Of a stretch of 64,000 nt of DNA, positions 24,001 through 27,000 are shown one piece after another. Position 1 is the stretch's first letter. Every line of letters starts with the position of its first letter. The position numbers were made by a program. The stretch lies in assembly GCF_013167455.1 (NCBI RefSeq), contig NZ_CP038328.1, one strand, 5' to 3'. The stretch comes from Escherichia coli O157:H7 (GTDB taxonomy: Bacteria; Pseudomonadota; Gammaproteobacteria; Enterobacterales; Enterobacteriaceae).

Positions 24001-27000
24001 TTACGATCGCAGCGGCGGCGGCTTAACACTTTCTGGCGGTGAACCATTCATGCAGCCGGAAATGGCGACGGCGCTACTGCAAGCCAGCCACGAGGCCGGC
24101 ATTCATACTGCGGTAGAAACCTGCCTGCATGTGCCGTGGAAATATATCGCCCCTTCTCTGCCCTATATCGATCTGTTTCTTGCCGATTTAAAACACGTTG
24201 CCGACGCGCCGTTTAAACAGTGGACCGACGGTAACGCCGCCAGGGTGCTGGATAACCTGAAAAAACTCGCCGCAGCGGGCAAAAAAATCATTATCCGCGT
24301 GCCGCTGATTCAAGGCTTTAATGCCGACGAAACCTCTGTGAAAGCCATTACCGATTTTGCCGCCGACGAGCTGCACGTTGGCGAAATTCATTTCCTGCCC
24401 TACCACACGCTGGGCATCAACAAATATCACTTACTTAATCTGCCCTATGACGCCCCGGAAAAACCGCTTGATGCGCCAGAACTGCTCGACTTTGCCCAGC
24501 AGTATGCCTGCCAGAAAGGGTTAACCGCGACCTTACGAGGATAACAACCATGACCACACTGAAACTGGACACGCTCAGCGACCGCATTAAAGCGCACAAA
24601 AATGCGCTGGTGCATATTGTGAAACCGCCGGTTTGTACCGAGCGCGCGCAGCACTATACCGAGATGTATCAACAACATCTCGATAAGCCGATCCCTGTAC
24701 GTCGCGCGCTGGCGCTGGCACATCACCTGGCGAATCGCACTATCTGGATCAAGCACGATGAGTTGATCATCGGCAACCAGGCAAGCGAAGTTCGCGCCGC
24801 GCCGATCTTCCCGGAATATACTGTCTCGTGGATCGAAAAAGAGATTGATGATCTGGCAGATCGTCCCGGTGCTGGCTTTGCGGTGAGCGAAGAGAACAAA
24901 CGCGTTCTGCATGAAGTGTGCCCGTGGTGGCGCGGTCAGACGGTACAGGATCGCTGCTACGGCATGTTTACCGATGAGCAAAAAGGTCTGCTGGCGACCG
25001 GAATCATTAAAGCGGAAGGCAATATGACCTCCGGCGATGCGCACCTGGCGGTGAATTTCCCGCTGCTGCTGGAAAAAGGCTTGATGGTCTGCGCGAGAAA
25101 GTAGCGGAACGTCGCTCGCGCATCAATCTGACGGTACTGGAAGATCTGCACGGCGAACAGTTCCTGAAAGCGATTGATATCGTGCTGGTGGCAGTCAGTG
25201 AACACATTGAACGTTTCGCTGCCCTGGCGCGTGCAATGGCCGCGACCGAAACCCGCGAAAGCCGTCGCGATGAACTGCTGGCGATGGCAGAAAACTGCGA
25301 TCTTATCGCCCACCAGCCGCCGCAGACTTTCTGGCAGGCGCTGCAACTGTGTTACTTCATCCAGTTGATTTTGCAGATCGAATCTAACGGTCACTCAGTA
25401 TCGTTTGGTCGTATGGACCAGTATCTCTACCCGTACTATCGCCGCGACGTTGAACTCAACCAGACACTGGATCGCGAACACGCCATCGAATTGCTGCATA
25501 GCTGCTGGCTGAAACTGCTGGAAGTGAACAAAATCCGCTCAGGCTCACACTCAAAAGCCTCTGCGGGAAGTCCTCTGTATCAGAACGTCACCATTGGCGG
25601 ACAAAATCTGGTTGATGGTCAACCAATGGACGCGGTGAATCCACTCTCTTACGCGATCCTCGAATCCTGCGGTCGCCTGCGTTCCACTCAGCCTAACCTC
25701 AGCGTGCGTTACCACGCGGGAATGAGCAACGATTTCCTCGACGCCTGCGTACAGGTGATCCGTTGCGGCTTCGGGATGCCGGCGTTCAACAACGACGAAA
25801 TCGTCATCCCGGAATTTATTAAACTCGGTATTGAACCGCAGGATGCTTACAACTATGCAGCGATTGGTTGTATCGAAACCGCCGTCGGTGGCAAATGGGG
25901 CTATCGCTGTACCGGCATGAGCTTTATCAACTTCGCCCGCGTGATGCTGGCGGCGCTGGAAGGCGGGCGTGATGCCACCAGCGGCAAAGTGTTCCTGCCA
26001 CAAGAAAAAGCGTTGTCGGCAGGTAACTTCAACAACTTCGATGAAGTGATGGACGCGTGGGATACGCAAATCCGTTACTACACGCGTAAATCAATCGAAA
26101 TCGAATATGTCGTCGACACCATGCAGGAAGAGAACGTGCACGATATTCTCTGCTCGGCGCTGGTGGATGACTGTATTGAGCGAGCGAAAAGTATCAAGCA
26201 AGGCGGCGCGAAATATGACTGGGTTTCTGGCCTGCAGGTTGGCATTGCCAACCTCGGCAACAGCCTGGCGGCCGTGAAGAAACTGGTATTTGAACAGGGC
26301 GCGATTAGTCAGCAACAGCTGGCTGCCGCACTGGCGAATGACTTCGACGGCCTGACTCACGAGCAGCTGCGTCAGCGGCTGATTAACGGTGCGCCGAAGT
26401 ACGGCAACGACGATGATACTGTCGATACGCTGCTGGCTCGCGCTTATCAGACCTATATCGACGAACTGAAACAGTACCATAACCCGCGCTACGGTCGTGG
26501 TCCGGTTGGCGGCAACTATTACGCGGGTACGTCGTCTATCTCCGCTAACGTACCGTTTGGCGCGCAAACTATGGCAACGCCAGACGGACGTAAAGCCCAC
26601 ACCCCGCTGGCAGAAGGCGCAAGCCCGGCTTCCGGTACTGATCATCTTGGCCCTACTGCGGTCATTGGCTCGGTGGGTAAACTGCCTACGGCAGCGATTC
26701 TCGGCGGGGTGTTGCTCAACCAGAAACTGAATCCAGCAACACTGGAGAACGAATCTGACAAGCAGAAACTGATGATCCTGCTGCGCACCTTCTTTGAAGT
26801 GCATAAAGGCTGGCATATTCAGTACAACATCGTTTCCCGCGAAACGCTGCTGGAGGCGAAAAAACATCCCGATCAGTATCGCGATCTGGTAGTGCGTGTC
26901 GCGGGTTATTCCGCCTTCTTCACCGCGCTCTCTCCAGACGCTCAGGACGATATCATCGCCCGTACCGAACATATGCTGTAATCCCCTCAGCCCGGCGGAG

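Follow-up and report, generated by a model that had tools for sequence, protein, structure and literature searches.

A lineage-wide one-base deletion in the glycyl-radical enzyme gene ybiW of typical Escherichia coli O157:H7 and its predicted metabolic consequence

The window examined here, a 64,000-nucleotide stretch of DNA from Escherichia coli O157:H7 (NCBI RefSeq assembly GCF_013167455.1, contig NZ_CP038328.1), contains ybiW, the gene for an oxygen-sensitive member of the glycyl-radical enzyme family, together with ybiY, which encodes its activase; in older nomenclature these are pflF and pflE respectively. We propose, with a probability that we put at about 90%, that ybiW of typical O157:H7 is a genuine, evolutionarily recent unitary pseudogene without an active product, and that the anaerobic route for 1,5-anhydroglucitol is predicted to be lost with it. 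The reading frame is broken relative to the intact nearest relatives, and the lesion is reproducible and restricted to a single lineage. It was already on record, in public annotation and in a supplementary table published in 2010; the only new element is a metabolic prediction that draws on the function recently assigned to YbiW.

Alignment at the lesion gives GAAAAAGGGCTTGATGG in K-12 MG1655 and GAAAAAGGCTTGATGG in the window, with two G at 25078-25079, and the aligned stretch reads GGAAAAAGGGCTTGATGG in K-12 MG1655 and GGAAAAAGGCTTGATGG in the window. From a GGG run abutting a run of five A, in codon 177, one G is missing (G3 to G2). A preliminary description of this DNA had reported that the YbiW-like open reading frame (ORF) switches from frame 1 to frame 3 and that the first frame ends seven codons later, and both the ORF listing and translation of the two frames agree with it. 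The ORF at 24550-25104 lies in frame 1 and encodes 184 amino acids (aa), its premature stop (TAG, 25102-25104) being the seventh codon after TTG, and an open stretch in frame 3 then reaches a stop at 26981. The frame 1 translation ends ...LLLEKGLMVCARK and stops. Frame 3 is open from before the lesion and reads ...KRLDGLREKVAERR... on to the native C-terminus, ...RVAGYSAFF...TEHML and stop, and its continuation ...LDGLREKVAERR... is native YbiW sequence. Reinsertion of one G gives an ORF of 810 aa with a single terminal stop and no other lesion, so that this repaired ORF and the K-12 alignment together confirm that loss of one G has frameshifted ybiW.

The position of the missing base needs correction, however. 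The reconstruction first offered, TTGGATGG, placed the G within TTG-GATGG, and it is wrong, as the K-12 alignment gives the ancestor as GGGCTT and not GGCTTGG; the two reconstructions could not be told apart from the window because both encode KGLDGLREK. The interval originally assigned to the site, 25078-25090, is right in that the lesion lies at its left edge (25078-25079) but not in its placement inside TTG-GATGG. Likewise, although the site is not a long homopolymer, as was stated, it is still a short one, with G3 beside A5. Alignment with intact ybiW alleles, which had been suggested as a check, gives the single-G difference from K-12 at this site and G3 in near relatives.

The repaired protein matches PDB entries 8id7 and 8yjn ('Probable dehydratase YbiW', solved E. 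coli structures) at 1843 bits over residues 1-810, and this match, together with synteny with K-12, identifies it as the YbiW orthologue. It scores 1406 bits on TIGR01774 (cut-off 678), and in Pfam a PFL-like domain (700 bits) spans residues 11-671, followed by a Gly_radical domain at 688-792 (112.6 bits). These domains are seen complete only after repair; as the gene is encoded, no one polypeptide carries them. Neither fragment has a complete PFL-like domain in Pfam, the 5' fragment spanning profile positions 3-173 of a 647-position model. The radical glycine motif and the catalytic Cys loop are kept in the sequence but both lie in the downstream frame, and the earlier statement that the C-terminal glycyl-radical domain would need an internal start is correct, RVAG786Y and Cys441 being out of frame with the start codon. 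We regard ybiW of the window as a member of the glycyl-radical enzyme family by descent, and not an intact one.

YbiW belongs to the same fold family as the eliminase-type glycyl-radical enzymes glycerol dehydratase, choline trimethylamine-lyase (TMA-lyase) and hydroxyproline dehydratase (E-values 1e-164 to 1e-110), and like them it has a Cys-x-Glu loop and an RVxGY motif. A Cys-x-Glu motif is typically seen in the eliminase/dehydratase branch of the glycyl-radical family. YbiW scores under the equivalog cut-offs of B12-independent glycerol dehydratase, choline TMA-lyase and hydroxyproline dehydratase, and on these scores we assign it to a substrate class separate from the named eliminase-type families. 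Compared with K-12 YbiW/YbiY (b0823/b0824) the locus is orthologous, with 91 differences over about 3.3 kb. Unlike that of K-12, however, the window ybiW is without one G in codon 177 and its product leaves the native sequence after residue 178, and YbiY carries A96S. The gene order moeA-moeB, fsa, ybiY, ybiW, ybiV, ybiU is the same in K-12 MG1655 and in O157 strain FDAARGOS_293, whose coordinates map one-to-one onto those of the window; fsa presumably encodes the next enzyme of the YbiW pathway.

The distribution of the deletion was followed with allele-specific 40-41-mers, whose 28-base seeds all cross the lesion, searched in 5,426 complete E. coli genomes, 5,425 of which contain the ybiW locus. 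The 40-mer of the deletion allele is found in 293 genomes (292 exact) and the 41-mer of the intact allele in at least 2,545, the latter being a lower bound because seeding is blocked by nearby single nucleotide polymorphisms (SNPs). Among the deletion carriers listed are Xuzhou21, 86-24, ATCC 43889, 43890 and 43894, along with numerous isolates from cattle and humans obtained in different laboratories, and all those with a serotype in the record are O157 or O157:H7. No carrier outside the O157 lineage was seen among those inspected, all of which have O157-type alleles. One candidate for an independent recurrence, the pig isolate NJS001 (5.1 Mb), was rejected as it carries O157-type YbiY, MoeB, Fsa and YbiV proteins. 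The 2.7-kb region around the lesion differs from many E. coli O157:H7 chromosomes at one position only, the A at window 26125 (100.0% identity after rounding). RefSeq annotates ybiW as 'frameshifted', for example in FDAARGOS_293, and the supplement of Zhou et al. 2010 (PMC2806823) assigns the deletion to the O157 lineage (entry O157, 986309, del, ybiW). In the same work the single O55:H7 gene G2583_1051 is mapped to ECs0900 and ECs0901 of Sakai and to Z1045 and Z1046 of EDL933 (PMC2806823).

The preliminary description had left some room for a base-calling error, in which case the G would be missing only from the record of the window and the gene would truly be intact. The short homopolymer context (A5G3) is one in which such an error could occur, and two O157:H7 assemblies, SS52 and SS17, have an open frame. 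However, the presence of the identical deletion allele in 292 other complete genomes from many laboratories (293 in all) already refutes this explanation and disposes of the residual worry, and Zhou et al. assign the deletion to the shared Sakai/EDL933 lineage, the O55 gene being represented by two coding sequences in each. Nor do the two open assemblies help it, as SS52 and SS17 lack the ancestral GGG and have a different inserted A in each, and both derive from Ion Torrent PGM data with reference-guided assembly. Their authors' own comparison lists 139 homopolymer differences and 129 frameshifts between the two, and SS17 also has an N in ybiV. The likelihood of such an error is virtually nil, and a sequencing slip in the window record is excluded.

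Some points do weigh against the reading of ybiW as a pseudogene with a predictable metabolic consequence. The function of YbiW is taken from a secondary citation (PMC12441222, citing Ma et al., J Am Chem Soc 2024, 146:26187) and from the names of PDB entries, and the A-AAA-G context of the lesion could in principle permit rare -1 slippage of tRNA-Lys. In addition, SS52 (A6GG, E-K-R-L) and SS17 (A5-G-A-G, E-K-E-L) have the frame restored and YbiW annotated as 'intact'. Their insertions sit at SS52 locus 2998-3025 and SS17 locus 2790-2805, which correspond to window 25073-25079. SS52 and SS17 are closely related, with SNPs 22474T and 26601C in common, yet the insertions differ. Both were sequenced on the Ion Torrent PGM, with de novo and reference-guided assembly.

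One way to account for SS17 and SS52 is that the lesion is part of a reversible contingency (phase-variable) tract and that these strains are true +A revertants (Gly177Glu and Gly177Arg respectively) selected in super-shedding cattle, as these two related super-shedders have unlike +1 insertions precisely at the lesion, both of which restore the frame. We consider this very unlikely. The plain deletion is present in 292 of 294 lineage members, both exceptions come from one laboratory and an indel-prone platform, and two independent insertions in sister strains with none elsewhere are a better fit to error than to biology; a G2/G3 tract is also too short for classical phase variation. The frame restorations in SS17 and SS52 are in all likelihood assembly artefacts, and the 'intact' ybiW calls in these two Ion Torrent assemblies should not be trusted. 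TR01 ('O157:H7', NZ_CP033605.1), which has an intact allele, was considered as a case of localized re-acquisition of ybiW but is uninformative, as the whole 40 kb has diverged 0.6-1.4% from the window. Over window 4962-45103 this divergence is mosaic, compared with about 8 bases per 50 kb in other O157:H7, and it may be due to an extensive recombinant tract, to another genetic background or to a problem in the assembly.

The ancestral state is well represented among the nearest relatives. A 602-bp query carrying the restored G matches 22 genomes at 100% identity, among them eight O55:H7 strains (CB9615, RM12579, DEC5A, DEC5B, DEC5D, DEC5E, USDA5905 and TB182A), the O157 strains LSU61, PV15-279, F3113 and 493/89, the last a representative of the sorbitol-fermenting clone, and a few other serotypes. 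Alignment of the locus confirms G3 in O55:H7, LSU61, 493/89, PV15-279 and F3113, and ybiW is annotated as intact in all of them. LSU-61 is a presumed evolutionary intermediate (PMC7175801), and PV15-279 belongs to the beta-glucuronidase-positive O157:H7 clade, which has an intact uidA (PMC6256406); F3113 and PV15-279 have a private fsa SNP in common. Because these relatives, including the beta-glucuronidase-positive clade, keep G3, the deletion postdates the split from that clade, and we place its origin on the branch to typical O157:H7 (sorbitol-negative, beta-glucuronidase-negative).

Apart from the SNP of the window itself, most O157:H7 genomes are identical over the pseudogene, and this near-identity fits a young lesion. 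There are two later substitutions in ybiW, both non-synonymous in the repaired frame and too few for a test of selection. The first, T to A at 26125 (Leu526Gln), is private to the window, a 41-mer centred there matching 0 of the 5,426 complete genomes, and the second, A to C at 26601 (Thr685Pro), occurs in SS17 and SS52. The lesion resembles that in uidA (beta-glucuronidase) of typical O157:H7, which is also a small frameshift in a catabolic gene, and the distribution found here for ybiW is that of uidA, whose frameshift is present in typical O157:H7 whereas the beta-glucuronidase-positive clade has an intact gene (PMC6256406). Loss of uidA is, however, a classical diagnostic phenotype, whereas the searchable literature gave no phenotype for loss of ybiW.

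In the reading that we favour, the A5-G3 tract of codon 177 lost one G on the branch to typical O157:H7, most likely by replication slippage in the short homopolymer. Ribosomes starting at 24550 would then synthesize 178 native residues and 6 aberrant ones before stopping at the TAG at 25102-25104, and the truncated product would comprise about a quarter of the PFL-like domain and lack both the Cys441/Glu443 loop and the radical site at Gly786. The 632 codons that are left would have no efficient start of their own, so that no active glycyl-radical enzyme would be made, and YbiY would be left without its cognate substrate protein.

Whether any active YbiW might still be produced depends in part on the starts available downstream of the lesion. 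The downstream frame has 8 candidate internal starts, the first of them GTG at 25182 (residue 212), and none of the 8 has a Shine-Dalgarno match. The energies of the duplexes with the anti-Shine-Dalgarno sequence are -1.3 to -2.3 kcal/mol or weaker at the internal starts, compared with -5.9 to -6.6 kcal/mol at the starts of ybiY, ybiW and ybiV. Internal restart giving a C-terminal enzyme was rejected on the grounds that all 8 candidates lack a Shine-Dalgarno sequence. A consensus scan for promoters and terminators inside the gene gave none above the expectation from shuffled sequences. Loss of YbiW function, suggested by the truncation together with internal starts that lack a Shine-Dalgarno sequence, is the best-supported reading, and the preliminary description appears justified in calling the enzyme probably non-functional.

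The lesion might nonetheless be bypassed, either by a -1 ribosomal slip on A-AAA-G that yields full-length YbiW(G177R) or by reassembly of separate fragments, with activity reduced and not abolished. The geometry for a slip is present, since the P-site Lys codon AAA (25075-25077) can re-pair without mismatch after moving back one base within the A5 run, the native sequence downstream is read in the -1 frame with respect to the start, and a stem of 8 bp follows at a distance of 14 nt. However, the zero-frame sequence CTG GAA AAA GGC contains no X XXY YYZ heptamer, only the tetramer A-AAA being slippery, and there is no Shine-Dalgarno-like element upstream. With a minimum free energy of -17.5 kcal/mol, where shuffled sequences average -17.9 (z = 0.14), the downstream stem is matched in stability by 109 of 200 shuffles, and its sequence is unchanged from that of the intact gene. 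Near relatives encode a continuous ORF, so that recoding was never under selection. A programmed -1 frameshift was rejected for want of a heptamer, a stem better than shuffled sequences and a frameshift requirement conserved in relatives. Reassembly fares no better given internal starts without Shine-Dalgarno sequences and the lack of a complete PFL-like domain in either fragment, and we regard bypass by any of these means as highly improbable.

The activase gene adjacent to ybiW was initially described as intact, and at the level of the ORF it is. The radical-SAM activase encoded at 23645-24544 scores 364 bits on TIGR02494 (cut-off 174) and has a CxxxCxxC N-terminus. The description holds at that level only, as YbiY has an O157-specific Ala96Ser substitution in a CPxxA motif. 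The change responsible, G to T at 23930 (codon 96), is found in every typical O157:H7 examined, whereas F3113, PV15-279, 493/89, LSU61, O55:H7 and K-12 have G, and we place it together with the ybiW deletion on one branch. The Ala that it alters belongs to a motif kept by the paralogue PflC, which is 34% identical to YbiY (CPSGAF in PflC versus CPTQSL in YbiY). A PDB search for activase structures covering residue 96 gave only PFL-AE-type chains without the ferredoxin-like insert.

In a 2025 review (PMC12441222, citing Ma et al.), YbiW is reported to cleave 1,5-anhydroglucitol-6-phosphate to 1-deoxyfructose-6-phosphate. PflD is reported there to cleave 1,5-anhydromannitol-6-phosphate to the same product, both cleavages following uptake by the phosphotransferase system (PTS) and occurring under strict anaerobiosis only (PMC12441222). 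PflD and PflC, with the frw PTS and FsaB, make up the paralogous glycyl-radical pathway and resemble YbiW in enzyme family and in the logic of the cluster (glycyl-radical enzyme, activase and fructose-6-phosphate aldolase paralogue). In Sakai, pflD and pflC are intact, and frwC, the PTS IIC gene of the pflD/pflC/fsaB cluster, has TAA at codon 247 (35277-35279 of the extracted Sakai locus, NC_002695.2). The frwC nonsense allele is present in 83 of the 5,426 genomes, including Sakai, EDL933 and Xuzhou21, and among the genomes listed all those with a serotype in the record are O157 or O157:H7; from this distribution we take it to be a later event in an O157:H7 sub-lineage. Literature searches for discussion of the O157 ybiW pseudogene, or for use of 1,5-anhydroglucitol by O157, found neither.

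Table 1. Features of the ybiW locus, with positions given in window coordinates
Feature	Position	Strand	Remarks
ybiW (pflF) pseudogene, glycyl-radical enzyme gene with a 1-bp deletion	24550..26981	+	810 aa after adding one G
Lesion site: A5 run (25073-25077) then GG (25078-25079); ancestral A5-GGG	25073..25079	+	K-12, SS52 alignment
5' fragment ORF: 178 native residues + MVCARK, then TAG (25102-25104)	24550..25104	+	frame 1, 184 aa
3' part of ybiW, frame 3, native residues 179-810; longest mechanical ORF from GTG 25182	25080..26981	+	
G-C441-I-E443 catalytic loop (Cys-x-Glu), out of frame with the start codon	25866..25877	+	
R-V-A-G786-Y glycyl-radical motif, out of frame with the start codon	26895..26909	+	
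ybiY (pflE), glycyl-radical enzyme activase, open ORF, 299 aa	23645..24544	+	TIGR02494, Radical_SAM, Fer4_12
fsa (fsaA), fructose-6-phosphate aldolase, divergent neighbour, intact	22852..23514	-	annotation
ybiV, sugar phosphatase gene, downstream of ybiW, intact	27127..27942	+	annotation

Elsewhere in the window, iaaA (beta-aspartyl-peptidase; 19520-20485, minus strand) has an internal stop in O157 FDAARGOS_293, where the annotation makes it a pseudogene, and is intact in TR01. The window also differs from FDAARGOS_293 at 3417, 6780, 28060, 33424, 47530, 48876 and 49560; it may come from a strain, or from an earlier version of a sequence, outside the collection of 5,426 genomes. Between rimO and dgcI, at 9615-10320, the annotation gives a RelE/ParE-family toxin gene and a helix-turn-helix antitoxin gene.

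The function of YbiW has been described since 2010, and the frameshift therefore now predicts a specific metabolic difference. Given the reported cleavage of 1,5-anhydroglucitol-6-phosphate by YbiW, typical O157:H7 is predicted to have lost that route, and O55:H7, LSU61, sorbitol-fermenting O157 and beta-glucuronidase-positive O157:H7 are predicted to retain it. It is conceivable, although we think it rather unlikely, that the ybiW deletion belongs to the defining catabolic losses of typical O157:H7, together with those of sorbitol fermentation and beta-glucuronidase, and/or reflects directional loss of both 'radical glycolysis' anhydro-sugar pathways. The events that would fit directional loss are the ybiW deletion and ybiY A96S on the founding branch, followed by the frwC nonsense mutation in the Sakai/EDL933 sub-lineage. 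If this were true, the losses would have been selected, or constraint would have been specifically relaxed in the bovine niche, and the marker would be an absence of anaerobic growth on 1,5-anhydroglucitol. The ybiW lesion leaves the understanding of glycyl-radical enzymes and of O157:H7 virulence unchanged, and the predicted difference in 1,5-anhydroglucitol use may serve as a differential marker between typical O157:H7 and O55:H7 or atypical O157.

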